This document shows positions 1,876 through 63,360 of a stretch of 64,000 bases of DNA, in pieces. The DNA is from Raillietiella orientalis (lineage: Eukaryota): positions 3,286,001-3,350,000 of the forward strand of contig JAYWIR010000006.1 in NCBI GenBank assembly GCA_036172245.1. The letters are read 5' to 3'. Under the pieces are notes generated by a model. It searched no databases and was not told where the DNA came from. It worked only from the letters and a program-made list of their open reading frames with translations. How positions within the stretch are numbered: position 1 is the stretch's first letter; each line of letters starts with the position of its first letter. The translations under genes and the position numbers were made by a program.

Positions 1876-2946
1876 GTATTCTGAAGGAGTGGGAACGAAG
1901 AGTTCAGGTCATCCTTGAAGCATGTGGAAGCTGAAGTTTGAAATCGGAGCCATCTTTGTGGCAATTCCAAGCTTTGCTTCCATTGATCTATTCACTCTGA
2001 ATGTCCCAGGGTGAGAATCTCAGCTTCCGTGAAACGAGCGGACAGAATTCGGATGAGGATATGAGAATGACAATCTGTTATTAAAGCTCCAAAAAAAAAG
2101 AGGAGGAAGAAACCTTAGGCATCTTCGCTCTTCTTTTCCATATTGTGCTCAGAACTGTAGATAAGGTTTATCTCCATTCAAATGGTTTATCGTCTTCGTG
2201 TAACTTATGAATAGAGATAATCTAGTTGGACTATTTAGACATGTTTTGGATTTGGAAGCTTTCCTGGTAATTCCTTTACGTGGGAGTTGTTTTCAAAAAT
2301 GCGAGCATATGAAAGCAGAAGTCTAATTTATGGAGAGGAGGAACTCGAGGAAAGTCGCTTGGTTATCTTTTGAAGTTCAGTACAAAAGAGCTAATGTCTG
2401 GCTGAACATGATGCTTTGCAGCCTTGGGGAACATTCATTTTTCGGCTGTCGTGTCCAAAGAACATTGAGACAACTGATCTGCCGTGTCATCTGCACGTCG
2501 GCTTGCGAGCAGGAGCTGCTGGCAGTTGGGCGGCAGTTGGATCTCTAGCGAGCATACAGTGCCGTAACAGTTCAGTGATTCTTATTCATCAAGAGAAGTG
2601 CTTCAGCAGCCCTTTCCTTGCACCCTGGGAGCAGGGTGCACCCCCCACCCCGCCCCCACTCACCAGCTAACTGCTGCTCCTCCAGCCTCTTTCTCTCTGC
2701 CACGCGTGCCGGCCACTTGAGACTCATTAAGCAAGGTATGAAGCCAGGTTCTACCAAAGTTTTGCAAGTGTTTTCTGGTTACATCAAGAGGCCCGCAGCT
2801 ATCATTTTGCAAACTTTTCAAAATTGAAAGAGCAAAGAATCAGCGGAACCTCGGATAGACGGTGTGAGGCTGCGGCGAGTGGTGGTGGAAGAGATGGTTC
2901 TGATTTGCCCCCCGGGTGCTGACTGTTTCGCCATTCCGTTGCGGAA

Positions 2947-5652
2947 ATGGGAGGCACGCCGAGCACGAGAAGAATCACGGTTGTCAACACGAACCAGGGA
3001 GGCAGCATAATAGAGGTATGAAGTTTGTGATTCAAACCTGGAACCTTAAACCCGTTCGTTGCCCTTTCTGGGCCGAGGTCTGCGTCAGCGTAAGGCCGAG
3101 TTTTGCGTCGAAACTTTTAACTTGCATGCCTGCTGTGAAGGGAAAAGTGCTTTCCGTGGATCCTAGGCTAACTCGTAATCGTTATCCTGCGAGGGTTATA
3201 TTTATGGGAAGGGAAACGCCCTAGTGTGTTCAGCGTCCTCAGATGTTTGGTCCGGCACCATGCTTTTGTATTGGAGTAAGCTGTAATTTTTTAACAGCCG
3301 ATGTGTACTGCACCAAGTGTGTTATAATTGATTCGCAAGTACGCCTAATGCACTTCAAACGTTCTCCTATCCCTAACATTACTCCTGTATTGTGGTTTAC
3401 AGTATTTAATAGGTGATCAGGTGAACGATGACAGCTTTATGGATGATGTATTGGCCTCTCCAACACTGGTTGGTATAGGCATACCCTTCATGCATGAATT
3501 ACTTCCATCTTTGAAGTCATACTGCAATGCATTCCATGAATATGGTCAAGTTTTTCTTATTCATCAATAGACATCCAGAATAATTTCCAGCTGTTGTTTC
3601 CTCACAACAATTCTGATCAACCAAAAAAGCATAGTCAGTTGTGGATTTGTGCATCAGTACAAAGTCTAAAAGTTTAAATCCAAAAGTAATTTTAGTCCCT
3701 TGTTTGGTAACCGGCACCAATTAAGAAAAAGATATTGCCATTCTGTTTCCTCTAAAAATAGAGTAAGTTATCATGTGAAAGCTGCAGCCAAATATCTGGA
3801 AAGCTGATTGACATATTCTGAACATGCATGCTGTTTGCTTCAGTGTCAAGAATAGACTTTAACTTTCAAGCTAGGCAAACAGATGCATCATTATGGCTAA
3901 TGGAAGCAAAACTTTAATTATGAATCGATATTTTGCTTTTCAATGAAAAATTGATCCTTTTTATTAGTAAATGTTTATTTTCATGGCCTTTTTTTATTCA
4001 TAGATCCCTTTTAAAAGCAATATTGTCAAGTGGGAGTTATTCATGTGTTGCATCTAACAGCATCTTGAATTGAAAATGTGTGATAAATCTGTCAAACAAA
4101 TAAGGGATGTTGATTTAGTAGTGGATCTCATCTGCTATTTCACATGTACAGAGGCCATGAAGCTGTTCAGTTCATTGGAGAAAGAAATAGTTTACTTGGG
4201 ACCTCCACATAATATTGTTACTGTATTTGGCCGCAAGCATAAGCTGCCACGACAGCATGCAGGTTATGGTGACCCTGGTTTAACTTACACATTTTCTGGT
4301 TGTACCCTTGTATCTGAACCATGGACTCCATCCCTTTTGCAGCTCAAAGATGTAGCCAAAGAACTCACTGATGTTGACTTTAATTTTGCTGTTATCAATC
4401 GTTATTCATCAGGGCATGATCACATTGGATTTCATCGAGACAATGAACCTGATTTAGATCCCCAAGCCCCCATCGTATCCTTTTCCTTTGGTGAATCTAG
4501 GAAATTTGTGCTGAAGCACATCCAGAGAGCTCATCCTAAGCATGAGTTGCTCTTGGTTTCTGGCAGTGTGTGTATTATGTGGCCTCCCACCAATGTGTCC
4601 TGGCAACATGCAATCCCATCGTCAGCAAAAGCACTGGGACCACGTATAAATGTTACATTCCGGAAAAACATAAAAAATACACGTTCTGATTAATTGATTG
4701 ATAGATAAGTGTTTTTTTTTTTGAATGGGAGCTTGTAAATTTTTTGTTGAAAGAAGAAAATTATGAAAAACAACCTGGAGCACAGCAGTTAATAATGTTA
4801 GTAATGTGATTTGTGTATGACATGTTTCACTGTACAACAAATTGCCAATTAAAACACTTGACATCAACATGATCAGCCTACACAAAGGATGTATGATAAT
4901 AGATGGCCAAATCCCTGTTAGAGTGCTTGGTGTACATTCCAATACCAATTGGTATTCCAATAACAAAGTGTCAAACAAGGTTTGGTTATCATATTTGATC
5001 AGTTACTTGTGCAGCATGAAAGATACATTATAGACATCATTCTGATGGTTCAGCAGTTTTCAGATGCCGCAATTGACTGGCTGAAAACAGAAGTAGCAGA
5101 ACAGCAGCAAGCTAACAGATCAACTTCAAGAGATGCCCCAACAAAGGAGGATCAACCATCTGAAAAACCTGCATCAGAAGCACCACCTTCAGTGTCATCT
5201 GGTAAGAGAGGAAACAGTACAGCCATTCTAACTGCAATCTTCTGTAGATACTTCATCTCTGTCTTTTTATCCTGCTGGAGAAGTTCACATGGCTGCATTG
5301 CAGTTCATGACAGAAAAAGAACGTGAGCTTCAATCTGTGGAGAGGAAGTGGCAGCAGCGTCTAAAAGAACAGCAGGAGGAGGTATGCATAGTTTTGCTGG
5401 TATTGATGTTAGCTGCGATTTCAGTATGCTGCCATGGCCAATTTGAATCAGGAGGCATTGGAGCAGAGGATACAACATTTGCAAATGTTGCTTCCTGCAT
5501 TACCAGCTCCAGTCTGCCAGGCAGATCAGGAAAAGGTGCATGCCTGCTTACAACAACACCAGAAACAATCTCTGAAATGTAGTCAGTTAGTAAAGCAGTT
5601 TGCTCAGTGTGCAGAAGCTGCCCACTTCCAAGCTGTTTCATCATCCCATTAA
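2947..5652 (+). CDS. CHCHD3: MICOS complex subunit MIC19/MIC25 (CHCHD3/CHCHD6 family); model join(2947..3015,5057..5201,5248..5381,5425..5652), about 191 aa
   Basis: Exon 1 gives MGGTPSTRRITVVNTNQGGSIIE (MIC19-type myristoylation N-terminus). Exon 2 begins FSDAAIDWLK, followed by a coiled-coil middle and a C-terminal twin-CX9C CHCH domain PVCQADQEKVHACLQQHQKQSLKCSQLVKQFAQC. All introns are GT-AG with matching phases (about 2 kb, 46 nt, 43 nt). The exon 2 acceptor is a NAGNAG (5054 or 5057). Confidence 0.88.
4061..4693 (+). CDS. ALKBH2: Alpha-ketoglutarate/Fe(II)-dependent DNA demethylase, ALKBH2-like, nested in MIC19 intron 1 (first ATG 4076; in-frame acceptor at 4060/4061)
   Basis: Contains ALKBH2-type motifs VFGRKHKLPRQHAGYGDPGLTYTFSG, FNFAVINRY, HIGFHRD (HxD), WQHAIP (distal His) and PRINVTFR (2OG-binding Arg pair), all intact. 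The reading frame is uninterrupted. An ATTAAA lies downstream near 4848. Confidence 0.9.
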   Translation, partial: HLELKMCDKSVKQIRDVDLVVDLICYFTCTEAMKLFSSLEKEIVYLGPPHNIVTVFGRKHKLPRQHAGYGDPGLTYTFSGCTLVSEPWTPSLLQLKDVAKELTDVDFNFAVINRYSSGHDHIGFHRDNEPDLDPQAPIVSFSFGESRKFVLKHIQRAHPKHELLLVSGSVCIMWPPTNVSWQHAIPSSAKALGPRINVTFRKNIKNTRSD

Positions 5653-5680
5653 CTAATCTTAAAAAAAAGAAACGCATTTA

Positions 5681-6203
5681 TTAAAGGCCTTCACGTTCAC
5701 GTTCCTTGTATTTCTGTTGTCTGGCCAGAATACGTTTAGGCCTGAATGAAAGCCAAGATTACCAGGAAGAGTAACAGTCTTTTTACCTGGGATACCAATA
5801 GTATTTGGCAGTATGTGTCAACCGTTGCAGTTCAGCAATCATAGCATTTTGTGGTAGTGATGCTCTAAGCAACTTCAAGTCCTTGTGGCATTGTACTTTG
5901 TATATACTGTTTTCTATGTTGCGAAGCTCCACAGGAATTGGCTATTTTGAACTCAGTATGATAGCCTTGCTGATGTTTATTACCTTAGTCAATTCATATG
6001 GAAACTCGGTCTCAGGATGCCAACAGATAACCATGTCATCTTTAGGAATTATCCAGCATTTTCTGTTGAACGGAAACTGTATGGATTAAAACAGAAACTT
6101 TTATGACTTACTTCAATGATTCACTCAGTTCTCTCTTGTAATGGAAACTTCGACTTTGATATGGCAATGTTAAACGCAAAAGACTAGGCAGCAACTTACT
6201 CAT
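5681..6203 (-). CDS. MRPL42: Mitochondrial ribosomal protein L42 (mL42); model complement(join(5681..5741,5787..5941,5984..6062,6112..6203)), 128 aa
   Basis: Spliced translation: MSKLLPSLLRLTLPYQSRSFHY (presequence-like) ...VICWHPETEFPYELTKPIP...MIAELQRLTHTAKYYWYPRPKR...EGL*. This matches the mL42 motifs C[WY]HPxxxxPYExTKPIP and L-x-T-x-K-x-x-WYP. Three GT-AG introns (49, 42, 45 nt) have consistent phases. AATAAA overlaps the stop. Absent from the ORF track. Confidence 0.88.
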
Positions 6204-7514
6204 TTTAAATGTGAGTGAAGAATTTCATAATCTCTGCATATTTACTCTGGAGGACAAACACATCCCTTGTTAGCCATCATGCTGCTTACATTTATTTAAA
6301 AATGCCTCCATGCCCTTCGCTGATCAAAAGTTGTAAATAAAGCTACAATAATGGAGAAAATGTAATAAGCTTGTAAAATAAGCTTTCAGGATATGACACT
6401 TTCCCATTAATCGCTCCTTTTACACCATCTACTGAACTAACACTTAGAAAATGAAGATGCAAACCACGCAAACTTCCTTTCACCTATTACGTGTCTTGTA
6501 TAATATCTGAGAATCCTGTAACATGCAAGAATCAACATTTGTGGATTTCACTTTCCAATGCAATAGCAAGATTTAGGTTGTCCTTGCTACTAGACTGGCT
6601 TGCATATTATAATTAAGAAGCCACAATACAGCTTCATTAATGCAACTTGCAGGCCCCCAGAAACCGGAGCATGCCGTATGCTATCAATTCATCACAAGCC
6701 GTGGATAAAGCGCTTACTTTTGGCATCCCTTTAATTTGATGTTTCATTTCAACACCTTTATAGCCAATGGAAAGAAAAAGTCATGTAGGAAAGTCATCGC
6801 AAGCAGTTTGCAAAAGTAGGTCTATTTTGGCTCATAAACATAACAAGGAGTGAATAAACCTGCAAGACAACTCTAATTTCCTGCACGACATGGTGGCACA
6901 TGAGACGACCCAAATCACCTTTGGCACCTGGAACCAGGCAGAGACGGCTTCAACGTAGGTTTCTGCGCACCGCATCGCTATGCAGCGTCCGAGTTGAGAG
7001 ATTACGATCCAGAAAAATGAATTTCCGGGGTCGTTTGAACGGACCGTTTGTTTTGCACTTACGAAGCCCACCCTTTCCTCTGATAAAGACACTTTTCCGT
7101 CATGATTTGCGTCTTTACAAACAGCTCGTCTCGCATCTTGCGGCTTCAGCAGGAATTTCAGTGGTACCATTTTCAAAATTCAGCTCACGCCATCTACATA
7201 CAAGTGTGGACTCGGTAATCTTCATTCACATATCATTAAAGACATAATGTGTAATATGGCATATGCAAACTCACGCACTGTTTTGCCAAAAAAAAAACAA
7301 GATCTAAAACAAGCTATAATGTAAGACCCAAAGCTATAATCTAAAGAATATCTACTGATAAATAACAAAATAATACGTGTGGAAACAACTTTAGCAGCGA
7401 TATTTTGCGTTCCCATACAGAAGAATGAAGGAATGCTACACCGATAGAAGTTCTTCTAATTTTGGCTTCAGAATAGATGCCATAATAATTTTCGTGACAT
7501 TTTCATGTTCCTCG

Positions 7515-8850
7515 TTACACGATATCTAGATTCATTAAGTGACACAACTGAAGGAAATTCCTGATGCATGTTGCACTAAAAATTACCAGAATTTTGGAAG
7601 CAAACATTGTAATCAAGACAATCGAAGTGTGCTTGTATCTAAAAGGAGATAACAGACTAAGAGTTTCCAACGCCTTAGGTATCCTCGAAACATTTGGTAT
7701 CTCCACAAGTCGTGACCTCGTTGTTGAGATTGAATAAAAATAAGTTCAAGTAATTTCAAGTAATCTTTTCCTCTCTAAAGCTGGGATAACATTTAAAAGG
7801 CATTTTCTGTCTCTAATCTTATGTCTTTGAGCATCTTGCGAAGTTTAAATTTTCTTCGGTTGTTCGTCTGCGTGAAAAGTGTGAAAAGTCCATTGAAGTT
7901 TAACTGTTTGCTAAACAAACCATTTAGAGAGTGATACAAATCTCACGCAAAGGATTTTACTTTAGTGTATGTATTATGGAATCAAAATGAAACAGTGCAA
8001 TGATCAAAAATAAAAATGTCTTGTAAATCTACACAAACAATCGAATGCGTCATTATCTCACTCTGCAAAACAAAATTCATGCTTCAACTTATTGAACATA
8101 CTTTGTTTCGTCTTAAAGTGCACACCAAACTCTTACGGCTTCCTTACTTCTTGTAAAACACTTATAAATCGCCATCATACATCTGTGTGCTCATGTTTGT
8201 ATTTGTATGCTCTCCGAAATGTCTCCATTCATCATCTCACTTCTCCATGTAAGCCACGGACCGACGACAGCGATTTGCAGCATGACTGAGAAAAAAATAA
8301 TCCGCAATTTTTTCTGTGGAGACTCAGCACGAGTCGATTCCAAGTTTCTTTTGTATAAATTATGGTGTAAATCGTAAACTGCCTTGTGAATTACACTGCA
8401 TGCAGTGTAAGAGAGTAGTTTTATGATTTACATGGATTCCTATGGCTATATAGTGCATTTTCCCTAATAAAATCGACATTTTCCTCGTTGAAGGCACGGC
8501 ATATTTTCTCTGTCACATCAACAATTTTCTGACAAGTCGAACCAAACATATGAAAACATCCATCCTCTTCGTTAAAACAGTTCCTTTCTCGGCAAAGTTG
8601 ATTGGTGGGAAACTTGCAAGCTCCCCTGGAAATTTTCTGTTTGTAACAGGCAGATATTGCTGATAATGCAATGCATCTTTGATATTAGCTCAGCTGTCAT
8701 CTAATGCGAGTGTCACACAGTTGAACGATTCCATCCTTATTTTTCTTTTAAAGCAACATTTGCAGACTGTTTCGAGAGACAATTTCTGCTGTTGTTGCCC
8801 CGCCGCTTTCATGGGGCTTTCATAGCACCGTATTCATCTCATCCAGAAAC
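7515..8850 (-). pseudogene. Heavily decayed hAT-type (SPIN/Buster/GTF2IRD2-like) transposase remnant
   Basis: The minus-strand fragment FASKILVIFSATCI...LMNL (7515..7706) resembles the hAT C-terminal dimerisation motif (AxxILSMFGSTYxCEQxFSxMxL). An upstream fragment near 8790-8810 loosely resembles the MKGTTTG motif. Many stops, no TIRs recognised. Confidence 0.35.
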
Positions 8851-10934
8851 ATAATGGGAATTGGAGATTGGGATTAAGATCTTGAAATACCCACTTCCTC
8901 TCAGAAAATCACTGCTCTGAAACTCATCAGCCTCAAAACTGCAACATCCTGCGCCAGTATTTCTTATGGGAGACCTTAGGAAAGTGAAAAAATCTATTTC
9001 ATTTTCCTAAGGAGTAAAGTAATAAAAAAACACGTTCGATTGAAAAAAAAAAAAAAAAAAGTAAAAATCCGGTACGCGAAGATTGTCTGACGCTCTCACG
9101 GCTTGCTGGTGTTTTAATGAGGAGAATGCCAAAATTCAAAGAAAACCACTATAGGTAGAAACTTCAGATGTAACCCTACGGAAACACTCGTCGCTCTAAA
9201 CCAACAAGCTGGAGCTCATATTTCACTATTCCATAAGATTAGAATCCACTAGAGTCCTAATCGGGGAAACGGCTTTTGAAAAGAAAAAAAAAAGGAAAGG
9301 AAAAAGCAGCGTGCGAGCTGGTGCACAATGTCATTTTTCCTTTTCTACACTGTTTCTTGTTTTGCATAGTGGAGAGCTAATGATGCAGGCACCAGACAGA
9401 TCTTGTAAACCAAGTCCGTGCTGATGAAGTTAAAGGCGGAGAATGGAAATCGTCACGATACACTTATCGAGCCTGGTAATCGTTAACCGGAGGAACTCCT
9501 GTTCTAGACGCGGAAGGGGGGAGGGGGGAAAAAAGGAATTGTAAAATGGCGCTGCTCTTTGTCTTGAGGAATAAGCATAATTGCAGGCGGAAACGGCACG
9601 AGAAAGCTAGCCGATCAAAGGGAGGAAATGTATCGAAGGAAATGGCATCTGGGGGAACGCAGTTCGAATGCATTTTCAAGAGCTTTGTAAATGAATACCT
9701 TTTTTTTTAAGCAATTAATCACGTTAGACCTGTCCTTCTTAAGTTATGCAGTGTGTTAAGGGAATCCAGGTCAACTTGGCGCGTGAATTCGAAGTGTCCA
9801 CCACACACGTGGTGAATCATTCGGCTCTAATTCGCGTTGACCGCTGAGTGCAGCAGACGCTTGCCAGACTGTGCTTGGACTATGCCATGGTTGCTGCTTG
9901 GCAGGGCATAAAAGAAAGGTCATCCAGCTCCGATGTGTGCGGAGGACAGCGTTTCTCCGCAGACAGTAGGCTGATGCAGGGTGGCGATGTTAACCGGTGT
10001 GTATTTTTCAGCACCGCTTGGTCAGTGTACTTGGGTATGCATAAAATTTAGCAGCTGATGCATCCTAGCAACCATACCTCCTCAGTTTTTTGTTTGTTTA
10101 TTTCTTTCTTCCGCTCCCTATTCGCCAGAAGAATTCCCAGTAGAGCTCGTGAAGTTAAATGAGCTGTGATATCCGTAATCGCAACTTGAGTGGAATGAAA
10201 CCCTGTTGGCACGCGGTCAGCACAGATTTTTGGTCATCGATAAATGTTAGCGCTCCAATGAGTTTATGCCCATGTAATCGGATTAATCTATATTCAGGTA
10301 TATGGGGTGCGAGGGGAATGAGGGTGTACAGCAGGATGCAACATTGGTATTCAAATAAATTTCAGAGGTGTTCAGAGCAGCAGCTGGTAGTCAAAGAGAG
10401 ATCGAGAAGCAGTATGCGCTGAATTCCGGAAAGCAGACGAATGGGCTGCGCGTAGATAAGATGTGCCAACTACAGAACCATTCGACACTACTAAACTCGT
10501 TTCTAAAACACGAGAGAGAAGACCATTCTCTAGTGGCTGGAGGCTGTTGGGCGTGCCGTCAAGACAGCTGGAGAAGTGATCACAAGAGTACTACTGGAAA
10601 CATCAGTTTGTCGGCGAGTGATGTCGCTAAGTGTCAGGCACGAGCGCCTTCGCTTAACACGAAGGAAACGCTTGGGTTCTCATCACTGTTTCGCTACCCT
10701 TCTTGGCGACGGAAGTGGTACAGCAACAGCACTGTGGGATGCGAGGCTGTCCGAGCCGCGACTGTTGCAAGCTGGAGACGCTCACTTCGTGAGATCTGCT
10801 GTTGGGTGCAGGCTGCAGCAAGTCGTTTTTGTTTGGAGAGGTTGGCGAACAGCTCGCGGCACTTTCAAAGGACGAAGAAGAGTTGGGGCTTGGCGAAAGG
10901 GAACCACCCAACGCAGAAACACTTCTGTAATCAC

Positions 10935-11834: not shown

Positions 11835-12385
11835 CACCCTATGAATCCAGGAAGGCTCCGGGGGAGAAGTCCGTTCCGGTCACTCCTGGGAGAGAACCCT
11901 GAAGGGAAGAACATCTTCCTTGCCCCTTCTGGAAGCACCCTCCGGAAAGGATCCGCTCCCTGTTTCCTCCTCTGAAGAGAACCTCGAAGGGGAGCTTCCA
12001 AATTTTCTCTGAAGGGCGCTTCCCTGAAGGGAACTGTGCGATTCTCTGCACTCTCTGGAGAGGTGGCGGCACACCATCAGTACGATGCGGAGGGTTCCCT
12101 CAGAATGAAGAGTTTACCCTTTCACAACCGGGGTTGGAAGAACTTGCACTTCTTGATTCCTGGAAAGACCGGAGAGTTTATTTCCAATCCCTAGCACTCA
12201 TCGGGGGCATCCGGTTTGAACCGCTACCGATGCCGCATCTAATGAATGTAGGCCAACCAGCGTCATCTCACGGGTGGAGGTCGAATCCACGATGCACACC
12301 CATCTCTCGGCGCCCGTTCTTTCCAAGTGTTCGAGTCCGCGACTCTTGGTGGTGTCACTGGCGAAGACCGCAGCAGCCGATGCAG
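11835..12385 (-). mobile_element. tRNA-headed SINE-like repeat, copy C
   Basis: Shares ccctatgaatccaggaagg, the gaagagaacc repeats, ccaaccagcgtcatct and ttcgagtccgcgactcttggt with the other copies. Confidence 0.7.
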
Positions 12386-12617: not shown

Positions 12618-15600
12618 TTATTGCTGCTGGTCGAGCTTGGGCTGCGAGGCGTGGTGGAAGACCATGCGCAAGACCTCGTTCAGCTTGGCCTCGGTTTCCT
12701 GGATCTTCCTCGTGATGCCTTCCTTGGCTTGCTCCAGCTCGTGCTCGTGTCCCTTGAGCGCGCCCGCGAATCTCTCCCCCGTGGCCTCCGCGGACCTGAT
12801 CAGGTCTTCGCGCAGGTTCGCCAGGAGGACGTTCAGGAGGATGCGTACTCTCTCGCTAGCGTGAAGCAGCAGCTCCTCTGCCTTCATCCTGCTCTCCGTC
12901 GACGGCATCTCTCCCGACTTCTTAAACATCTTCAAAACCTGAGCGCTAGGCTTCTGGGACCCGTTGCTGATGGCTGACTCGCTGCGCCGAGCAATCCTCT
13001 TCGTGTTGCCGCGCATGTTCTTGAAGTTCTTGAAGGCCAAGGCCTTTAGACTCTCCAGGGTCTGTTTCTTCATGAAGCTGCAAGCGTAAGTGGGCTTCTC
13101 CCCGGCGGCCAGGAACTGCTCGTAGTATTTCTGGATGCGGACGATGGTGCTCCTTCTGCTCTCCTCCCTCTGCTTGAAGAAGGGAAAGACAAAGAACCCC
13201 AGGGCGTTCCTCTTCTTTTCGTTGGGGGCCACCCTGATGACCAGATCGGACAGCATGTCCGGGAACATCGTGACGTCCTCCTTGAAGGATCGGATGGAGC
13301 ACCTAGCGTGCAGGATTATGGCTTCGAATTGCTGGAGCAGCTGCACTTGGTGCGACAAGCAGAGGCGTCGGCTCTCCCTGAGCAGCGTCTGGAAAGGGCT
13401 GATGAGGGCGCATGAGAAAAGAAAAAAGAAACGCCGCCGCCGCTGCCGCTGCCGCTTCTCTTCATTTCTAGGACAAAGCGAAGTCCGAAAGAAAAAAAGC
13501 TCCACTTTCTTCTTTTCCTTTTTTTTCCTTTTGGAACCCGAAGCAGGCTCCACTCACTTGGAAAACCGGATGCACGTTCTGTGGATCATGCATATTTACA
13601 TGTTGTATACGGTGTATCTATTACAAGTACAGTATACCTCTGGACTCGTTGGTAATTCGTTCCGGAACTCGTGACGAGTGCCAAAACCGGCGAGTACCAA
13701 CGAGTTTCTTCCTAGGCCTTACCATTTTAGTATTCATGAGTGACGCTTGAAATGCACAGAAAGCACACAAAAAAGAGAGCGATTCGGGCGGCACTCTATG
13801 GAAGTGTTCCGGCTCTTCGCGTGCTGCCATAACGCGAAAGCATGCACCTGTTTCATCATGAGAGCTGGGAGCCGAGTTCCGAGCATGCGCCTCCGAGTGC
13901 CGAAACACTTTTTTTTTTTCCTCGTCAAAATGCGACGAGTACTGAGGTTGACGAGTTCCGACGTCGTCGAGTACCGAGGTATCACTGTATACACGAATGA
14001 CATGCACACATAGAAGCGAAGACTTGAACTCTCGTGCCCGTTGAGAAGCCCTCGAGGAAGGCCTCGCCCGAGCGCGCAAGGAGCGGCTGCAGTTGCCGAG
14101 GGGACAGGGCGAAGCCGACACGCGTTGGTCGGATGGACCAGCAGCGGTCGTTTGCGCGGTTCAGGGAAACACGGCGACAAGGAGCGGATATCGTCTGGGG
14201 GGGAGGGGGAGGAAAATTAGACTAAACCTCGCCCCGCTTCAAGAGAGCTGCCTTTGCGTTTCTTTGCTCCTGCGCCGCGACACAATCGGTCGCTTCATGC
14301 TCCCCGGCCGCGGATCTCTCCCATAAGCACGCGAGACTCCTGCCATCTGGCTTGCAGAGTTGACAATGTGGTCGAGGGTGCGACCGCAATCAGTCAGCAG
14401 ATCTTTCAGCGCGACGCGTGTCCGTTGCTGGCAGCAATCAGGTGACTGTCCTCGAAAGAAGAAGGCGCGAGGGAAGAAGAGGAAAAGGAGATGCCCCCGC
14501 CGCGTCTCTGGGGTACAACAAGGAGGCCGTCAAGGCATACAGAACTGGGAGGGTGAGGTCGTCGCCATCTCCACCGTCGCTGTTGGCGCTGCCTCGGTCG
14601 TGACGACGATGCCGGCGGAGGCGACAGCGCCAATAGCGACGGTGGCGGCGAGGGCAGCGATCACTACGATGACGATGCTGACGCAGATGATGGAGACAGT
14701 GAGGAGGACAGTGGCAATGACGGCGACGACGATGATGATGATGATGATCGAGATGGTGCGAAGTTTGCCGCGATCGTGTCAATGACGGTGACGGATGTCA
14801 GTCGTCATTGATGACGACGACGGTGGTGCCCACGCAACACGACCGGTGAGGACTCCATTCACGATGCCATGACGACGGTGACGGTGGTCGCCCATGGAGG
14901 TCTCTCTCTCTCTTCATCACCCTTCCCTGACCTCTTCCCGCGCGCTTTCGCCTGCGAGGGTGGGCCGGCGAGCATGAAACCGTCGAATGCGCGGGCGGGC
15001 GGACAGGCGCATCGCTCCCCACCCTCACCTGGATGTCGTAGATGGGTATACCCATGACGACGTTGAGGATGATGACGAAGACGAGGAAGACGTAAGCGAG
15101 AAAGATGATACCGATAGCGGTGTGGAAGACTCTGTTGGGCTGATAGAAGAGGCCATCGATGTCGACCTGGCCGATGACCATGGTCAGGATCTTCATGAGG
15201 TGCACGTACAGAGGCTTCTGCTCGTCGGCCTCCCCGTGGCTGAGAACGATCTGAAAGGCGACGCCGAAGCCGACGATGATCCAAGAGAACACCAGGACCA
15301 TGCCCATCATGATGGCAGACACCCTCCGGAACACCATAACGTACACGCTGATGACGGGGATCTTGCCAAGGACGAACACGAACTTGAGGGAAAGGAAGAC
15401 GGCGGAGAAGGCACAGAGGGCCGTCTGCCACACCTGCCTCTGGGCGAAGACGGGCACAAGCAGGGGGACGGCCGCCAGGAGAGCGAAGTCTAGGGGATAC
15501 TCCACGTCCCAGGTGCATCTCTGGTTGGAGAAGACGACGCGCAGCGTCTCCAGGACGACAATGGCCAAGGCAGAGGCCAGCAGCGCCGCCCAGGCGGTCC

Positions 15601-17737
15601 AGACGTCACCGTTCTCCTCCGGGCGGGCAACCCGCGTGCCGCCGGACGCGACGGCGGCGGCCAGATCCAGGCGCAGGAAGACGGCGATGTAGGTGGCGAA
15701 GAGGGCGATGAAGAGCAGCGAGGCCAGGAGGTACGCGTAGACGTACTTGCGCAGGAGGTACCACTTGAGCTCGACAAAGGCCTCGACCAGGGGGTGCTGC
15801 AGCACCCTGGCTTGACCGGCCATGTGCTGCAGCAGGAAGGACTCGGTGCGGAAGACCTTCGCCATCCGACCGAACTGCTGATCCGGGATCAGGGCGGTCA
15901 CGTCCATCTCGAGGACGCAGCTGGCGCTGTGGATGTCAAGCTGCTCGTCCTTGACCTTCCCAGCGTTCTTGCCGGTGACGCACTTGTCGAACATCTCCTC
16001 CAGCAGGTCGGGCATCGTGTCCGTCAGAAAGTAGGAGGCCGTGGCGTCCAGGCGCGCGCCCGCCTGCAGAAGCGCCCTCACGGCGGCCCGATGCCCCTGG
16101 CGGGCCGCCAGCTGCAGCGGACTGAAGCGCTCCGCCCATGCCGCCGTCGGAGGTGGCTTCGCCCGGATGTCCATCCTGGCGGGCAGCTCTTGTGGCGGTA
16201 AGGACGGCCTCTGGTTGACCTCCGCCCCGCTCATGACCAGCAGTAGGATGGCGTCGACCTGCCCTTCGCGGGCAGCGAGGTGCAGCGGCGTCAGCTCGGA
16301 TTCATCCGCGGCGTCGATGTTGGCGCCGCGCTCCAGGAACAGCCTCATCAGCTCCAGGTTCCCGGTCTCGGAGGCGTAGTGCAGGGGCGTGCGCTTCTCG
16401 TTGTCCAGAACGTCCACGGACTCTGGTGAGGAAGGGGAAGGGAACGGTTGGAAGGAAGGGAAGCGAGGAGGAAGCTAGGATCACCAGGGAGCCCCTGTGA
16501 CCTGGGAAGCAGCCCCGTGCCACGCCCACAGGACCACCCGGAAGAAAAAGCCCACGCTTGAGGCCTGCGAGCATCATCAAGCCCGAACCCAGGGTGTCAA
16601 GGCAGGACGCGCGCCTCGCACTCGCCCGATGCGCGACTGCAGCCACTTGGCACCAGCACACAGGGGACGGAGCGTTGGGCAGCTGTTGCCCGTCGGTAGC
16701 GGTTGGTGGTGATAGACCGGGTGAACCACCTCGCAGGAGCTGAGGAGTGATGGGTGGCCGTCTTATGCTCTGCAAAGTGACCCTAGATGCGGGCAGTGAA
16801 GGAGCGCAGTTGCTCGCTCGATGCTCCTCCTCTTTGGCGCCGGCGGCGCGCGACAAGGATGAGAAGAAGGTGGTGCGTGGGATGGACAACCTCAAGCCGC
16901 TCCTTGTGGTGGTGGGTCATCCTCACGCATGGCAAGCAGCGGAAAAAGCAGGGAAAGACAGGGGAGAGGAGCAGTGGGAAGAACAAGAGAAGAAAAAGCA
17001 GGAGGAGGAGGAGGAGGAAGAAGGTAGAAGGAGGCGGAAGAGATGTGAGCATGTCACCTGGCAGGAGGACCTCGACCACGTTCCTGTCCAGCTCGCTGAT
17101 GACGGCCCAGTGCAGGAAGCTCTTCCGCTTTCTCTGCACTTCCGGGACGTCCAAGGTGGCGCTGATCATGTCCTCGACGCCCTCGCGCCACCCAGCTGCC
17201 GCCGCCTTGGCCGCCAGGGTCGTGTCGTCTTCGAAGCGGACGCCGTACAGGAGCTGCTGCAGCAGGTCTGCGTCCTTCTCTTGAGACTCCAGGAGCTCTG
17301 TCAGTCGCTTCCGGTCCTGCGTCTGGACCGCTGTTGACAGCTGGTCTACGGTCTCCCGATCGTGGTCGCTCAGCGGGGTCTCCGTCTCTAGAAAGAAGAA
17401 CTCCCGGCTGTCTTCTTCCCGCTCGCCGAAGGACTGGAAGAGGAAGGAGGTCGGAAGAGTTCAACGGGTCTCGGAGGCATCCCAGCAGGAAACGTGTCAG
17501 CACATTTGCTGGACTCCACCCCCCCTCCGCCTATTCCAGACGTACCTCCCTCCTGCGCCTCGGGATGGCCTCGTCCACGGCGCCGATGATGATGGTGGTC
17601 CTCCTGCTGGACGAGGGAAGCAGCATGGAAGGCTTCTGGAGCAGCATGGAGCTGCTGAAAGCGCCCTCCAGTAGCGAAAGCTTCCTCGAGCTGCTGTGAG
17701 GGGTTTCCTCATCGGACCGGTCGTTGGTCTTGTCCAT
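12618..17737 (-). CDS. TRPA-family cation channel (pyrexia/painless/water-witch-like); model complement(join(12618..13388,15029..16422,17058..17433,17546..17737)), about 910 aa
   Basis: Ankyrin repeats (FLHWAV, TPLHYASETGN, TPLHLAAREGQ, SPLQLAARQGH), pre-S1 motif LQHPLVEAFVELKW, six hydrophobic TM segments, pore region KILTMVIGQVD, S6 ending ILNVVMGIPIYDIQ. The last exon gives a TRP-like helix LSHQVQLLQQFE and a C-terminal coiled coil. GT-AG junctions keep frame (2733 nt). A further upstream exon is possible (acceptor near 17767). Confidence 0.85.
13630..13987. mobile_element. MITE of Tc1/mariner-pogo (Tigger-like) type in the last TRPA intron
   Basis: TA at both flanks (13628-13629, 13988-13989). 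Imperfect TIRs: CAGT-ATACCTCTGGACTCG versus reverse complement CAGTGATACCTCGGTACTCG. About 7 internal CGAGT(A/T/G)C(C/T)(G/A)A motifs. 358 bp, no transposase. Confidence 0.8.
14590..14890. repeat. Degenerate (GAC/GAT/GGC)n trinucleotide low-complexity tract in TRPA intron
   Basis: Runs such as gacgacgatgatgatgatgatg and gacggtgacggtgg. They generate spurious poly-His/poly-Met ORFs. Confidence 0.7.
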
Positions 17738-35615: not shown

Positions 35616-36500
35616 TTTTTCACCCAGATATGCTGGGGCATTTATTATTAAAATTTTAACAGCGTAAAATCTCATAATGAAATCTTTATGTTCATTCAGG
35701 CAGGACACTTGGTTCTGCCGGTCTTAAGTACTTGTCCTCACCGGTCGTCACGCCGGTGAGGCCCTCTTCGCTGGCGAAGGGGGAAAGGAAAATCACACAA
35801 AAAAAACAAAAACAAAAAGACGAGCGGAAGGCAATGTTTCACGGGTAGAGGAGGGAAGGGAAGGGATCTTAGATCTCCGGGAGGGATCCTCTGCATCCGA
35901 CTTTGGATGCGGACAAGTGCCAGTCGTAATGTCCTTAGGCGGCGCCATCGGGAAGCCTTCTCCATGGAGATGGCTGCCCAGAGAATGGCATTCCGGCTGT
36001 TGTAACCTCTCCTCGACGCAGTCCACTTGTCCAGAATTCCGCGTATGCAGCAGAGAACTGCTACACACGCGGCTGCTGTCAGGAAGTCCCCCATCAGGAG
36101 GCGACGGAAAATGACCTTTGAGTCGCCCACCGGAATGTTCAGAATCGACGACGGTCGACTCCACATGGGTCGAAAGGCGACACAGTCGATGATTAGGTGC
36201 GGGAAGATTTCCTGTTCCCCGAACGCTGCACAATTGGCATCAACACTCCCACGGGTCCAGTAGGAGAGACGTGCTCTGCAAAGGAGTCCCCAATGCAACG
36301 CAAGCAGCGCCGTCTCCTGCCAATCCAAGGGGAGGGTGCCATTGTTCCAATGCGCTGGGGACCACTTCACCTCCTCCGGAGGTATGCCGAGTAGCTCGCC
36401 CCAGCGCACAAGTCCTTTAGGCGGGACACTCGGGGCTGCAGAGTCCGCTAGTTCTCGAGATGTCCACGCTTTCGAGAGTTTTTTCCTGCCTTCAATAGTG
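35616..36500 (-). mobile_element. 5'-truncated L1/Tx1-type LINE fragment
   Basis: NGTLPLDWQETALLALHWG...NCAAFGEQEIFPHLIIDC, with the terminal AATAAA plus hairpin at 35616..35646. Confidence 0.82.
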
Positions 36501-39500
36501 CAGGGGCGAGAGAGGTAATTGTGTGACGGGAGACTTTATTACACCCGGTTTATCGCTGGAGCCGTCCCACACGCAGCAGCATGCCGCAGGAGCGTTGGAA
36601 ATATATGGTACCTGGAGCGATTAATTTGAAATGGTACCTGTCAAACGGATAAGGTTCTTTTCCTCTTTCAAAGCTTGTAGCTGCTGTCGAGGAGGTCCGT
36701 TTTCCCGAGCCCCAAATTGAGCTCGCCGAGGATCGGGAGAAGATTCCAACTGAGTGGGCGAACTTTTGTCATTCAGCTGCCACCGGAGAAGGCAGCTGCC
36801 ATGTGGAACTGCTACTGGGAAAACGTGGCACTCATTGCCGAGTTCGCGGTACCTTGGTGAGGACCGCGCTCCCCGGTGACCGAAGGAACTTCAGCGCAGC
36901 ATGGCGGAATCGCCTACGAAGAAGGAAGACGCAGAGAGTTGGATTTGTCCGAGTTCCGTTTCTCAGGCTTCCCCACGTTTCATGGTTTCCTTGGATTGCA
37001 GACCAATCTATCGCACCGGATTATCGGATGGGCAACTGCGTTTGAGATTCTGAACGGCGCGGTCATTAGTCATCAGTAGCGGTCTTCTGTCCATTCCATG
37101 GCTTCAGCTGCTTCCGATCTGCAGCTTGACTTGCACTTGCCACTGCCTAACCACGAACTTTTCCTGTCGAAATCCAGCAGCGTCTGCAGACAGATTCAAG
37201 CACGAGGATCAACCGGAAAGAATTTTCCACCGCACTCGTCAGGTGGACTGGAAATTTTGGAGCCATCTAAAAACACGTGCTCTCATGAAAAGTCAAGTGC
37301 TGATTCCGGGTTGCCAAGTGGACACCTGCCTGCAGAGAAGACACAAGTATCATATCCACATCTGCGGGGGTGTGCCACTTCAGCGTACTTCTATGAATGC
37401 TATCGATGGCAGCTTGGTAACTCCCAGGTGACCAAACTCGGTGCACCCATGGATGCTGCAGGAAGAATTTCAAAGCTCTTTCGCGGACTTTCTCGGTTTT
37501 TGTCAAATGGTATGCAACCAGATGAGACAGCAGAAAAGCTTCGTCCTTAATGCCAGCAGAAGGACCAAGAAGTAGCGTCCATGACCTTCAACTCCAGTTT
37601 CCTCGTTTGAAAATGCTTTACCAAGCTCATACGCAACCTGTGTGGTCTCAGCGTGTCTTCTTTTTCATCTTGACAGTCTGAAGCAATGATGTTTCGTGGG
37701 ACAGTGGACATAACTCGGCTTTGAAGATATCATTTTTATCCACAGTTGATGGAATCCGGCATTTCGGATGATTTTCAGCCACGTGGAATCTCGTGCTCAC
37801 TCTCCCCTCATCCCAGGGCGACAGAGGAAGGAAGTTCTCGTTCTTTTCATCACTTCTGGTACCTGCCGTCGCAAGTTGGCATTCGGATCCGAATTTTCTC
37901 ACATCAGCGCACCTAACGATTCACTTCCTCTTAGAAGAAGAATGCTGAGCTTCTCAAGCCAGCCAAATCTGCTAAACGGTTTTCTTGCACAGATGATTTA
38001 AAGTTCAAGCTGATGCTGAGGTTCAAGTAAATGCTAATTCCAAGGCAGCGTCTCGCGATGCACGAGAGTGACGCTGCAGCAGCCCGAATGATGCATGTCC
38101 ACGTGACCCTGACGTGAGCGGATATTTATGCAAGAGGCACAGATTGCTACTGGGAGCTATTGAAACGTTCTTCTCGTGGATATCCCATGGTTGCAACGGT
38201 CTGCGTTTTTGCGACCCAGTTGTCTTATTCAGCAGTGCCTTTTTCAATTGTAGAATAAAGCCGAATGTCCTTTCCTCTAATTATTGACTTCTAGATGCTC
38301 TCAATGGCCGCTTTCAGGAGAGCGCGGCACCTGGTATGTGCTCGAGGACAAAGGTGCCAATTCGTGTTCCTAAACATAGGAAGGAAGAGCAAAAAAAAAA
38401 AAAAATCATCATCAGTGCTTCGAAAACTGCTGCGGAATGCACAACTAAAGTGGGACAACTCGTCTGTCCTTAAATCAAACTGCGACGAGTTCGTCTCGAA
38501 AGACTGTTTTTTGCGAGAGCAGAGACTCCCCAGCTGCAGATGTTAATTCCTCGGCGTTACCCCGAAAATGCTGTTTAGGAATCCGGGAGGGAGAAAGGCG
38601 GATCTCGAAATCAGAGGTGTTGGGTATTTTTTTTCTATCTTGAAATTTCCATTTTCTTTTATTTTACTCTATTCTATTCCATTCCACTCCATTTTATTTG
38701 ATTTTTCTATTCTCCTTCATGCTGTTTTGTTGTATTTTATTCTATCCTACCCTACTCCTCCATTCCGTTTTACTTGTTTGCCCAGCGAAGGCGATTCGCT
38801 GAAGAGGTCCGCTCAGGGCCAGCTGCGAGTTCCGCTGACTTGGAGGAATCTCGTGGTCAAACCCGCCGATTCGCCAAAGAGCATGTTCGAAGGCACTCGA
38901 AGGCTCGAGTAGTTTGATAAACTCTCTGGGGAAGGAAGGTGCGGGATCATGAGCAGCAGTCACCTTGGCGACGGAATTGTTTCCGGGAGACCCGCGAAAC
39001 GAGAGAACCAGTTGAGGGACAAAACGGATCGCCTGTTCTTTCTTTCTTTCGCACAGACCAGGGACTGTTCAAGTATCCTAGTAGAGGAGCCGTTTGGCAC
39101 CAAGAAGGGATCTTTCATGTTTTCCAGGGCAGGAATGCTTTCGATGGTCTCAATGAGTCTCTATGCTGTGGGGAACGCACGAAGAAGAAGCGCGGGGAAA
39201 ATCACAGCGGTTTCTAGGTGTTCAAGAAACAGGAATCTATTCATGGAACAACATCGAAGACAGTCAGAGGGCGCCCATCAATTACAGCGAATCAACATCT
39301 GGAGCACAAATCCATGTTGAGGAGCAGTTGGTCCTTCTGATGCGCTGTCGAGGTTTCACGGCCGCGGAGTTCCATCTGCAGGCTCTTCAAGGGATGGTCA
39401 ACAGGTGTTCCTGTCTTTCGCGACCGGAAACGGTTCCAGTAAGTCTACGGCGACGTTCCTGCATCAGGAGCGAGGGACAGCTCAGTCTCCAGAATCAGCA

Positions 39501-45067: not shown

Positions 45068-45600
45068 TCCCCGCGTTCGCAGTCCGTGCGGCTGCGATCT
45101 CCCCGCACGTGACACCGAGCATGGCAGGTTCGAATCCTGCCCGGAGAGGGAAGGATCAACGTCGAGAACGGGGGACGCGTCGTGGGTTTCAAGATCATCC
45201 CCCTCCCCGCTAGATCACGCTGGTTGGCCCATATTATGGTGCAGTGGCACCGGTGAAAGCCGGATGGCCAGAATGGCCAGGATTGAAAGTTGACCCTCCG
45301 GGTCCCTCTGGGACATCAAGGGAACCTTAGGAGTTGCCCCTCCGGTTGTGAAAAGGGAGTCATCCCACCCACTCACCCCTCGGGGGACTCTTCATCGCAT
45401 ACCATGGAACTGGTTGATACTCCCCCTCGAGGGTTGCCTCTCGGGGGTTTCAGAAGCAAGCTGCTCCCTTCAGAGAAGCTGGGAAGCGTTCCTTCGGGGT
45501 TCTCTCCAGAGGATGAACAAGGAGTGGATTCTTTCCGTGTTCCTTTCGAAGAAGGAACGAGGGATGGCTCCCCCCAGGAGGATCCATCCGTAGAGAATGA
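45068..45600 (+). mobile_element. tRNA-headed SINE-like repeat, copy D
   Basis: Perfect T-arm hairpin GGCAGG-TTCGAAT-CCTGCC at 45123..45141, then cgtgggtttc, cgctggttggcccata, gttgaccctccg and ccttcggggttctct units. Confidence 0.7.
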
Positions 45601-46016
45601 GAAAGAGGTTCTCTTCGGGGTTGTCTACTCACTATCTTTTTTGGCGTTCCTATCCTGCACGCGCCCCGAGCCGCTGGAACCTACTGGTCTATTGGCCACT
45701 GGCAGGCACGAGCGATCGGACAGCTCGGTTTCCGGGAATTCGCGTTCCACCATGCAAGGACACGCTGACGAGCCGCGAAAGTCACTCACTGATCGCTCTG
45801 TGGTGTACCGGAAGAACGCTTTCGTTCCGCGATGCAGTGAGAGCCGGGTGTTCCGCGTGGCGCCGTGACCTCTCCGCCGTCTCCCTGCGAACGGACCAGT
45901 GCAGGTTTTTGCACGGGCACGAAGCGGGAAGCTGCCCCGCGGGCCCGCCGCCGAAACCGCCGCGTCCGCTCCATCGGGCTTTCGCTGCGGCGCGATGCTC
46001 TCAAAGATCGGCTGGA

Positions 46017-47560: not shown

Positions 47561-48525
47561 ATACTGCAACGCGGACTCCGAAAACAGAGGAGGGCGCAGC
47601 GAGCTGTTTCCAGAAGGAAGGGGAAGGGGGGGAGAAGGGGAGGGGGAAGAACAAGAAATAAAGTCATTCCGACTTGCATCGAGACGATACGACGCAGCTT
47701 CGACGTCGCGAATCCATCCGGTTCCTCGAGGAAGAATGGCACCGGTCCGCGGACAGCACCCACCCTTTGCTTCGACCTCGGAAGCTGCACACACCCCTTC
47801 TGAGTCTCCTCGCGTGCCGACGATCCTTCGGCGGAGCGACAGAGGTCTTGGACATGACGGGCCGGTTTTCAGCGAGTTCCTCGACCGGTCGGTCGGTGAA
47901 CCGATTGAGGAAGAGGGAACTTCTTTCCTCAACAGGATGATGGTTCCTTTATTTTTGGGGAGGGTCCTCCATGTGCTTAAGAACAGTTCGCCTGCGGGCC
48001 TACGAAGCTCTTTGACGCTGTCCACTCAGCCCGAAGATGCACGTGATTCTTCGAGTTCTAGGGCATGACCCCGGGAAGGGACCACCAGGAAGGCCCTAGA
48101 GAAAGGGATCCGTTCCTCTCACGCTTGGTAGGAAACCCCCTAAGGGAACCCTCCACCCTGGTTATCTGCGAAGGAAACCTCGAAGGGAAAAACATTTTGT
48201 CCCCTCCGGAAGGACTCCCCAAAAAGAATCCGCTCCCTGTTTCCCCCTCGGAAGAGAACCCCGAAGGGACGCTTCACAGTTTTCCCTGAAGGGCGCTCCT
48301 CGAAGGGAGCGTCACGCTTCTTTGCACTCTGGAGAGGCATCATCGACTTACCAGCTACGTGGTACGAGGTGGAGGGTTCCCCCTACAGAGGAAAGAACGA
48401 CTCCATTTTCCCTACCAGAGGGAAACCCCGAAGGGAGCCGACCCCTTGGTTCTGTTTCCTGGAAGGATCCCGGAGAGTCGACTCCCAATCCCGACCACTC
48501 GTCGGAAGGCATCCGGTTTTTACCA

Positions 48526-55152: not shown

Positions 55153-55473
55153 ATCGATGCGGACAAGCGCGAGGAAAAGCGGGGTGCTCCCGGCCGGGCG
55201 GTGCATGGCTTCTTTCACCCTAAATTGCATTGTCAAAGGGCTGACTTACCGGTTCAGCCTGACGGCTGGAGTTCTTGTCAAGCCACTCGCCGGCGTCGCG
55301 AGCAACTGGAGAATCCCTTCTTCGGAAGAGGCGGGCATGGCATGTAGACTCCATAAATCCATAAGCAGCAGCTCGCGACGCACTCGAAGAGTTGAGCAAA
55401 CCGAAACTTCCATGGTCATCTCACCCGCCTCGGAGGAGGAGGGTCCCTACACACTGATATCTTCCCAGCAGTA

Positions 55474-58400: not shown

Positions 58401-59126
58401 GTTGTGGCGAAGTGGGAGGTTGGTGTAAAAATCTCCGGAAGGGAGAAGATAGGAGCATGGAAGATGGCCCAGCTAACTGAAGCTGCGACCCCGAGTACGC
58501 CTCCCAATGGACTTCTGTGCTGGGGCGCGCTGCTCGATGCTCCAGTGGAACATCTGAAGTGGCCCCCGGTGCTAATTAACACCTCCACGCTCCCCTTAAA
58601 ATGGCAGGAGTCGTCGCTCCTGTTGCTGTACTGGGGACTCTCGTGCAACGCCCGACAACACCATTGGACCTGGGGAGCGGTGAACCCAAATTGTGCTAGG
58701 TTTGGGAAACGGAAGTCCATCCCCCACCTCCTTGTGGATTGTGTTGACCTTCGGCTCCTTTGGCTACGCTGTACCGCGTCCATCGGAATCCCCTACGGCA
58801 ACCCCAGGGACGCTGTAAAAGCCGTCTTCGTTTCCGACGCCCTTCGGCCGGCGGACTCGTTAGCAGCCCTGTACTGCCTTCGCGGAATCGTCGCAGCTTG
58901 GAGCAAGGCAACAGGAGAACCTCGCGATAAGGGTGCCATCCAGCGCGCCGCCGAATTTTCGGGGAGGGCGACGCGATGGCCCCACCGGATCCAGCAATTC
59001 AGAGAGAACTTGCCGGCATCCTGCGAAGGATTCAACGGCTACAGCAGCAACAGTGATCCCTTCCCGCACCCTCTCACGTTTTCTTTTGTTTTTTGTTTGT
59101 CCCCCTTTCCCCCTGCTGCAGCACAG
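55474..59126 (+). mobile_element. Non-LTR retrotransposon (L1/Tx1-type) ORF2, near full length but frameshifted: APE endonuclease - RT - C-terminal CCHC zinc motif
   Basis: APE motifs IAVWNVNG, DLALLQEIH, NVHAP, ADFN and SDHRPI. RT motifs GEDGLPVKFY, NWRPITVINADAK, DLRKAFDSVD, RQGDSLSPLLF, YADD and KYLGV, then GGLG. C-terminal NCARFGKRKSIPHLLVDC. Spread across at least 6 ORF pieces. Confidence 0.92.
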
Positions 59127-62854: not shown

Positions 62855-63360
62855 CCACCCTATAAATCCAGGAACGTTCCGGAGGAGGGAAACCCTGTAC
62901 GCTTCGTGGGGGGAACCCCGAAGGGAATCCTCGCCCTGGTTGTCTCTGAAGGGACCTCCCGGAGGGGATCATTGCTCATTTCTTTTTTAGAGGAACCCGC
63001 AAGGGGACCTTCCCTTCTTTCCTCCTCCTCGAAGAGAACCCCGAAGGGACGCTCCCCGAAGAAAGCAGAGCGCTCCTCGACACTCTGGAGAGCCCCGAAG
63101 GGGATTTCCTCCGGTTACGAAAATGACATCGGTTTTTGGAAGGACCCCAGAAGCTCAACTTCCCACCCCGGCCAGCCAGCGAAGCATCCGGTTGCCACCA
63201 GTGCCACAGGCGTCGCCCTGCAGCGGGGACTCGAAACCCACAACGCGTCCCCCGTTCGCATCGTCGACCCCCCCCCCCTCCCCGGGCGGGATTCGAACTC
63301 CCGACGCTTGGTGTCACGCGCGGAGACGGCAGCCACGCGCTCGCTAACGCGTGCACGGTG
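62855..63360 (-). mobile_element. tRNA-headed SINE-like repeat, copy H
   Basis: ccctataaatccaggaacg...gaaccccgaaggg repeats...gggattcgaactcccgacgcttggtgtcacgcg (B-box GTTCGAATCCC on the minus strand). Confidence 0.7.

Follow-up and report, generated by a model that had tools for sequence, protein, structure and literature searches.

An intron-less ALKBH2 gene nested in the first intron of a probable MIC19/CHCHD3 gene of Raillietiella orientalis, and the CpG footprint of the locus

INTRODUCTION

Does a gene that lies inside an intron of another gene, and on the same strand, have a promoter and a start codon of its own, or is it an alternative ending of its host? The question is raised by a locus near the beginning of a 64,000-nucleotide (nt) stretch of the Raillietiella orientalis genome (assembly GCA_036172245.1, contig JAYWIR010000006.1, positions 3,286,001 to 3,350,000 of the forward strand; hereafter the window, in whose own numbering all positions are given), where an open reading frame (ORF) for the DNA demethylase ALKBH2 occupies the first intron of a probable gene for MIC19 (CHCHD3). 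The initial annotation of this locus drew attention to splice phases that would permit the first MIC19 exon to be joined in frame to ALKBH2, and proposed that the two genes may share a promoter and first exon, giving either MIC19 or a myristoylated AlkB that could be associated with membranes or mitochondria. Our working interpretation, which we hold tentatively and with rather less than even confidence, is a plainer one, namely that ALKBH2 is an independent nested gene producing a stand-alone, core-only protein from its own AUG. The CpG footprint of the locus is a new observation that goes beyond the initial annotation, and it is described below together with the evidence on the two genes and on the putative splice site between them. 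Published work is cited by PMC number.

RESULTS

The inner gene is an intact ALKBH2

The sequence from 2400 to 6400 was inspected directly and all coordinates were then recomputed; both genes, with their signals, lie on the forward (+) strand. The inner ORF is intron-less and extends over 4076-4693, from an ATG at 4076 through 205 codons to a stop at 4691-4693. It matches Pfam family PF13532 (2OG-FeII_Oxy_2) with an E value of 4.3e-28 (99.3 bits, cut-off 31.2), and a phmmer search of solved structures placed human ALKBH2 (E 4e-47, query residues 14-199) far ahead of ALKBH3 (E 4e-16), bacterial AlkB (E 1.4e-5) and ALKBH1 (E 1.4e-4). The distance between the first two of these scores marks the inner ORF as a true ALKBH2 orthologue, as had originally been proposed. 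In an alignment of the window protein with 11 homologues, picked so that short forms and long ones were both represented, all 12 sequences share the iron ligands H120, D122 and H178 (HxD...H) and the 2-oxoglutarate-binding arginines R190 and R196. The ORF looks like a working gene, predicted to encode a demethylase of 1-methyladenine and 3-methylcytosine in double-stranded DNA, because it retains all 31 columns that are invariant among the 11 homologues and 41 of the 44 near-invariant columns. The Phe of the motif VFG, which we take to be the base-flipping finger of ALKBH2, is likewise aligned between the window ORF and the human protein.

The initial annotation had remarked that the N-terminal extension of ALKBH2 appears to be missing, and we agree that the vertebrate-type extension is absent, since in the homologue alignment the conserved core begins about 5 residues after the ATG at 4076. 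In vertebrate ALKBH2 this extension carries the PCNA-binding motif APIM, and no APIM-type motif occurs in the three forward frames of 2700-4100. The window protein thus resembles human ALKBH2 (3RZG, 3H8O, 3BTX) in its Fe(II)/2-oxoglutarate dioxygenase core, its iron ligands and its C-terminal arginines, and differs from it in having neither the extension nor the motif. Core-only forms are nevertheless common. A HMMER search of 1.84 billion representatives returned 7762 relatives, 99 of them at E<=1e-30, and among the 150 best representatives 58 are no longer than 215 residues; the best representatives in this library are 45-49% identical to the window protein and none exceeds 49%. A word-indexed protein search with ALKBH2 gave one match, at 35% identity. 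None of 151 ALKBH2-like proteins examined has an N-myristoylation motif and none has a twin CX9C motif.

The ALKBH2 frame is closed upstream by a TAA at 4055-4057 and is open from 4058, much as first annotated. The same TAA terminates a mini upstream ORF (4043-4057) consisting of an ATG, three further codons and the stop. The AUG at 4076 has A at position -3. Downstream, a candidate poly(A) signal for ALKBH2, the ATTAAA previously noticed near 4848, occupies 4848-4853, which is 155 nt past the stop codon and 200 nt before MIC19 exon 2.

The host gene is probably MIC19/CHCHD3

Exon 1 of the host gene (2947-3015; 23 codons, MGGTPSTRRITVVNTNQGGSIIE) opens with Met-Gly and ends in phase 0 at 3015, where GAG is followed directly by GTATGA. 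Exon 2 (5054-5201) starts in phase 0 and ends in phase 1, exon 3 (5248-5381) follows an intron of 46 nt, and exon 4 (5425-5652), which follows an intron of 43 nt, contains a twin CX9C (CHCH) motif and the stop codon. When joined, the four exons form an ORF of 192 codons with no internal stop. The start codon stands in a strong context, with G at -3 and G at +4, and a candidate poly(A) signal, ATTAAA, is found at 5680-5685. Intron 1 (3016-5053) is exceptional within the gene: its length is 2038 nt, the remaining introns measure 46 and 43 nt, and the whole of ALKBH2 lies inside it. The nesting of ALKBH2, on the same strand and in the only long intron of its host, is therefore confirmed, and both the phase of exon 1 and the disparity in intron length are as first described.

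The MIC19 N-terminus, MGGTPST, fits the N-myristoylation consensus G-{EDRKHPFYW}-x-x-[STAGCN]-{P} and so contains the predicted lipidation motif ascribed to it previously. Its first eleven residues are presumably close to those of vertebrate CHCHD3. The middle part of the protein is coiled, and two C-x9-C pairs encoded by exon 4 make up a single C-terminal twin-CX9C domain. Against Pfam, exon 4 has weak matches to the CHCH-clan families COX17, Pet191_N, Cmc1 and CHCH; the best family for this exon alone is DUF1690, the fungal Mic19 family, at 25.0 bits and thus below its cut-off of 29.7. Exons 2 and 3, each scanned alone, match no Pfam family, and a word-indexed protein search with exon 4 gave no match. 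The host protein therefore resembles MIC19/CHCHD3 in its Met-Gly myristoylation-type start, coiled middle and C-terminal twin CX9C, but departs from it in the sub-threshold DUF1690 score of the last exon alone and in a non-significant match to the solved Mic60-Mic19 fusion (E 0.31). We regard the host as a probable member of the MIC19/CHCHD3 family.

An AG at 5002, following TTACTTGTGCAG, is also in phase with MIC19 exon 2. Its use would add 17 codons and reduce intron 1 to 1987 nt, and the exact 3' end of the intron could be at 5002 instead of 5053, with no effect on the nesting. A form of MIC19 that does not include the myristoylation exon could begin at an in-frame ATG at 5045.

An in-phase AG upstream of ALKBH2

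The acceptor-like sequence TCTAACAG at 4053-4060 ends in an AG (4059-4060) that lies 15 nt before the AUG at 4076, and an exon beginning at 4061 would be in phase 0 with both MIC19 exon 1 and the ALKBH2 ORF. The join of 3015 to 4061 is open and in frame and would specify 233 residues, and a join through a candidate exon at 3403-3468 (3015 to 3403, 3468 to 4061) is likewise open and in frame and would specify 255 residues. The proposal that splice phases permit an in-frame MIC19-ALKBH2 chimera is in this respect well founded. Indeed, of 108 AG sites in intron 1, the one at 4060 is the only one that brings the complete ALKBH2 ORF into frame with exon 1. The initial annotation had, however, put the chance of such a phase match at one in three. 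From the AG frequency of intron 1 (110 AG in 2038 nt), we calculate a probability of about 0.28 that the six codon slots from the TAA to the ATG include one or more in-phase AGs.

As an acceptor the site is unremarkable. A crude test, which requires YAG (Y, pyrimidine), a pyrimidine content of 60% or more over the preceding 18 nt and a preceding 12 nt free of AG, was passed by 14 of the 52 YAG sites in intron 1, 4060 among them. The pyrimidine content is 0.61 at 4060 as against 0.56 at two of the three real MIC19 acceptors; because these two score below 4060, the test barely discriminates in this organism. The AG at 4060 has a branch-type TCTAAC at a distance of just 3 nt, compared with 16 nt for the AG of the 46-nt intron 2. 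The in-phase AG is thus not beyond chance. If the TCTAAC at 4053 is taken instead as the branch point for the next AG downstream (4103-4104), the resulting join is out of frame, and that candidate was rejected. The candidate exon 3403-3468 matches no Pfam family, and the eight other ORFs of at least 45 residues lying wholly inside intron 1, on either strand, have no Pfam match above cut-off; the only sub-threshold match among the intron 1 candidates is to DUF5474 (15.9 bits, cut-off 25).

A single CpG island and a single CpG-depleted domain

The locus has one CpG-rich island, at the 5' end of MIC19 (2794-3360), which we presume to be the promoter and transcription start region. It is followed by a CpG-depleted domain (3361-5672) that takes in the rest of intron 1, ALKBH2 and MIC19 exons 2-4, that has the candidate MIC19 poly(A) signal at its 3' edge and that is the strongest depletion in the window. 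The observed-to-expected (o/e) ratio of CpG is 0.96 over MIC19 exon 1 and the start of intron 1 (2947-3400), with values of 1.03-1.06 in 200-nt windows of 2800-3199, and then falls to 0.15 in intron 1 upstream of the ALKBH2 ATG (3401-4075), 0.34 in the ALKBH2 ORF (4076-4693), 0.00 in the 3' part of intron 1 (4694-5053) and 0.13 across MIC19 exons 2-4 (5054-5652). Altogether 3401-5652 contains 16 CpG, where 71.4 would be expected from the local low-GC background (o/e 0.84; Poisson P 3e-15), and TpG/CpA is in excess, with an o/e of 1.51 in 4001-6000. Outside 2001-6000, the 2-kilobase (kb) bins have CpG o/e values of 0.75-1.09 throughout the window, transposon-rich DNA included. The four longest CpG-free runs of the 64 kb all fall within 3426-5673, and the ALKBH2 start codon falls inside the second longest of them, a run of 306 nt at 3926-4232.

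Loss of CpG is described as a mark of DNA that is methylated in the germline, and some invertebrates methylate the transcription units of a subset of their genes (PMC8857923, PMC2975444). We infer that the depleted domain may be the footprint of germline gene-body methylation over one transcription unit, reaching from the exon 1 island to the poly(A) signal at 5680. That the domain is single gives independent support to the placing of MIC19 exon 1 two kilobases upstream of the remaining exons, and hence to the nesting itself. It also shows that ALKBH2 lacks a private promoter protected from CpG loss; the domain is unbroken and the island is the only one. The suggestion in the initial annotation that the two genes share a promoter consequently gains indirect support from sequence composition, in the single island over exon 1 and the continuous depletion over 3361-5672.

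Within the domain, the CpG o/e of the ALKBH2 ORF is about three times that of its intronic flanks or of MIC19 exons 2-4, and of the nine CpGs left in the ORF, four lie close together within its final 70 nt (4620-4682). This higher value could reflect coding constraint, a later arrival of the sequence or a local dip in methylation. The genes of the window contrast strongly in base composition, and the CpG depletion is mosaic, not genome-wide: the GC content of third codon positions (GC3) is 0.41 in MIC19 and 0.35 in ALKBH2, both of them CpG-depleted, and a single-exon ORF of 558 codons on the reverse strand (14798-16474), resembling ankyrin/TRP-channel proteins, has a GC3 of 0.85 and a CpG o/e of about 1. 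Atlas look-alikes of this ORF fall alike in arthropod, cnidarian, chordate and chlorophyte clusters, and those of ALKBH2 in bacterial AlkB clusters.

Other loci and the remainder of the window

The collections searched contained no close relative, and a first metagenome scan confirmed none among 173 pattern matches. Among 80 distant ALKBH2-like metagenome loci, most of them on short contigs and phylogenetically remote, none had a MIC19-like flank match at E<1, and the three such matches that were seen had E values of 3.2-8.9. Among the listed entries of a full-text literature search there was no ALKBH2/CHCHD3 locus of this kind.

Rfam gave no match at gathering score in the window and none at E<=1 in 2400-6000, ARAGORN called no tRNA gene in the window, and nothing in 2400-5800 recurs elsewhere in it. 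Remains of long interspersed nuclear element (LINE)-type retrotransposons are present at 55396-58032 (+), 58383-59747 (+) and 35738-36535 (-), in DNA whose GC content (52-60%) greatly exceeds that of the MIC19 locus; they include an ORF with an endonuclease/exonuclease/phosphatase domain (E 8e-6), RVT_1 ORFs (E 3e-21 and 4e-13) and a further ORF with a zf-RVT match below cut-off (E 0.029). A GC-rich dispersed repeat family is found at 1100-1950, with partial copies, 72-96% identical over 28-147 nt, near 11967-11999, 45479-45617, 48105-48275, 50107-50163 and 62992-63056. By eye, part of the copy at about 1700-1860 is like the reversed tRNA-like head of a tRNA-derived short interspersed nuclear element, although ARAGORN calls no tRNA there. 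Downstream of MIC19, 5700-10400 is about 4.7 kb of low-GC (38-42%) DNA in which there is no recognizable gene and ORFs reach 129 codons at most, so that the genome is not compact, despite introns of 43-46 nt.

DISCUSSION

The MIC19/ALKBH2 locus is one more instance of the known arrangement of host and nested genes, and its layout is ordinary. Nested genes of mouse and human favour long 5' introns of their hosts, with the same and the opposite orientation about equally frequent (PMC11694760). As in such animal pairs, ALKBH2 lies wholly within one long intron, the 5'-most of its host, whereas the present pair differs in that the other host introns are tiny (43-46 nt) and the only long one is accounted for by the nested gene. 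We lean, with some hesitation, towards an independent ALKBH2 because the AUG at 4076 yields the whole conserved core and because the ORF has its own A at -3 and its own ATTAAA; the identity and integrity of the gene, the ordinary quality of the acceptor at 4060, the habits of nested genes and the absence of a myristoylation motif from all 151 homologues incline us the same way. ALKBH2 would then be an intact and selectively maintained gene, transcribed as its own short mRNA from a start in the CpG-poor region just upstream of 4076, translated from the AUG at 4076 into a 205-residue, core-only Fe(II)/2-oxoglutarate DNA demethylase, and ending after the ATTAAA at 4848. Transcripts of MIC19 would start at the CpG island of exon 1, traverse ALKBH2 and lose it by splicing along with intron 1, and the AG at 4060 would be a coincidence or, at most, the site of a minor read-through isoform.

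Several features of the locus sit uneasily with an ALKBH2 that is transcribed on its own. There is no CpG island at ALKBH2, and its 5' flank offers no CpG-rich gap in the depletion: 3401-4075 contains 3 CpG where 16.4 are expected (P 7e-5), and 3927-4231 contains none where 6.5 are expected (P 0.0015), while among control windows of equal length from other low-GC DNA none of 400 and none of 170 were free of CpG. A promoter active in the germline would be expected to be unmethylated and to keep its CpGs, so that a shared promoter accounts for this flank no less well, and perhaps better, than a private one. The leader of an independent transcript would also be constrained, since a clean one could occupy only the 30 nt or so downstream of the ATG at 4043, and 27 ATGs precede the ORF from 3016 to 4075. 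Finally, what the intron contains, an ORF with a 3' splice-type site ahead of it and a poly(A) signal behind, corresponds exactly in its anatomy to an alternative terminal exon.

Under the model first proposed, both genes would be transcribed from the MIC19 promoter and share its coding exon 1, with splicing of 3015 to 4061 and polyadenylation after 4848 giving the 233-residue myristoylatable fusion and splicing of 3015 to 5054 giving MIC19, an arrangement that we consider unlikely though deserving of attention. A single CpG island together with an unbroken CpG-depleted domain is the expected genomic trace of one such MIC19/ALKBH2 unit, the join is open and in frame at the sole AG of intron 1 that can serve the whole ORF, and, given the strong context of the MIC19 AUG, an ALKBH2 sharing exon 1 would be translatable only through an in-frame join. 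There is a precedent of sorts in the cholinergic gene locus, where a single-exon ORF in a first intron is served by shared promoters and alternative splicing (PMC3053374). Set against this, the phase match is one that chance would provide in more than a quarter of cases, the acceptor is one of 14 look-alikes with TCTAAC abutting its AG, and not one of the 151 ALKBH2 homologues has a myristoylation motif. The destination of the fused protein is a further difficulty. A G2A mutant of MIC19 is reported to lose membrane binding in transient expression (PMC6235283). [quoted passage not shown] Yeast Mic19 similarly enters the intermembrane space by way of its CHCH domain and the Mia40 route, its myristoyl group binding Tom20 (PMC6362269). 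As the CHCH domain is needed for import, a fusion with exon 1 only would stay outside the organelle, tethered at best to the surface of a membrane and far from mitochondrial DNA, and the earlier idea of a mitochondrion-associated AlkB is weakened by these reports and by the absence of the motif from the homologues. The membrane tether would hold ALKBH2 outside the nucleus or at the mitochondrial surface, if the fusion were made. Neither the intermembrane space nor the outer membrane holds a DNA substrate, and an enzyme specific for double-stranded DNA would, when anchored to a membrane, be away from what it acts on. It seems to us doubtful that a single transcription unit yields, by choice of terminal exon, a cristae organiser from one splice form and, from the other, an ALKBH2 tethered to membranes by N-myristoylation.

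The CpG evidence is also compatible with a stand-alone ALKBH2 that is translated from the AUG at 4076 on transcripts of the MIC19 promoter, the AG at 4060 then being an acceptor for a trans-spliced leader or for an untranslated leader exon, and we are sceptical of this too while seeing some merit in it. The AG is only 15 nt before the AUG, which is the first AUG to follow it, and short leaders after the trans-splice site are typical of trans-splicing animals; the 43-46 nt introns of MIC19 are very short, and very short introns occur in several trans-splicing lineages. The cholinergic locus can be cited in its favour as well (PMC3053374). The window, however, contains no recognizable gene for a spliced-leader RNA or other RNA family and no copy of the dinoflagellate leader motif, and the acceptor is an unexceptional one. 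A silent or recently dead retrocopy, with a working ALKBH2 elsewhere in the genome, would account for an intron-less ORF inside a host that has 3 introns in 192 codons and for the want of a promoter-like CpG island, and the contrast in CpG o/e between the ORF (0.34) and its flanks (0.00-0.15) could mean that the ORF arrived later than its surroundings. We think this very improbable, given that the ORF is intact and keeps 31 of 31 invariant positions, that no poly(A) tract follows it and that no direct repeat brackets it, the five direct-repeat families present being all of chance size (11-13 nt).

Of known systems, the closest in layout is the cholinergic locus already mentioned, in which VAChT/unc-17 lies within ChAT/cha-1 and in which, as here, the inner ORF is a single exon in the first intron of the host and on the same strand. 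The exon shared by the two cholinergic genes is non-coding, and both proteins belong to one pathway; MIC19 and ALKBH2 have unrelated functions, and the exon they might share is a coding one, whose sharing would produce a fusion. VAChT and ChAT depend on multiple promoters and on alternative splicing, and the arrangement is reported to be conserved from nematode to mammals (PMC3053374).

With an independent nested ALKBH2 as the preferred reading, the locus is of modest interest unless a fusion transcript is found. It does have practical consequences for annotation, in that an automatic pipeline might fuse the intron-less ALKBH2 in error or leave it out, or might overlook MIC19 exon 1, situated 2 kb upstream of the remaining exons. 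Should the fusion prove true, the locus would be a rare case of a coding first exon common to two unrelated proteins, and its product would, to our knowledge, be the first lipid-anchored DNA repair enzyme of the AlkB family. The argument from the CpG footprint may be reusable in other genomes with mosaic gene-body methylation, where it would offer a hint, from sequence only, as to whether a nested gene has a germline-active promoter of its own.

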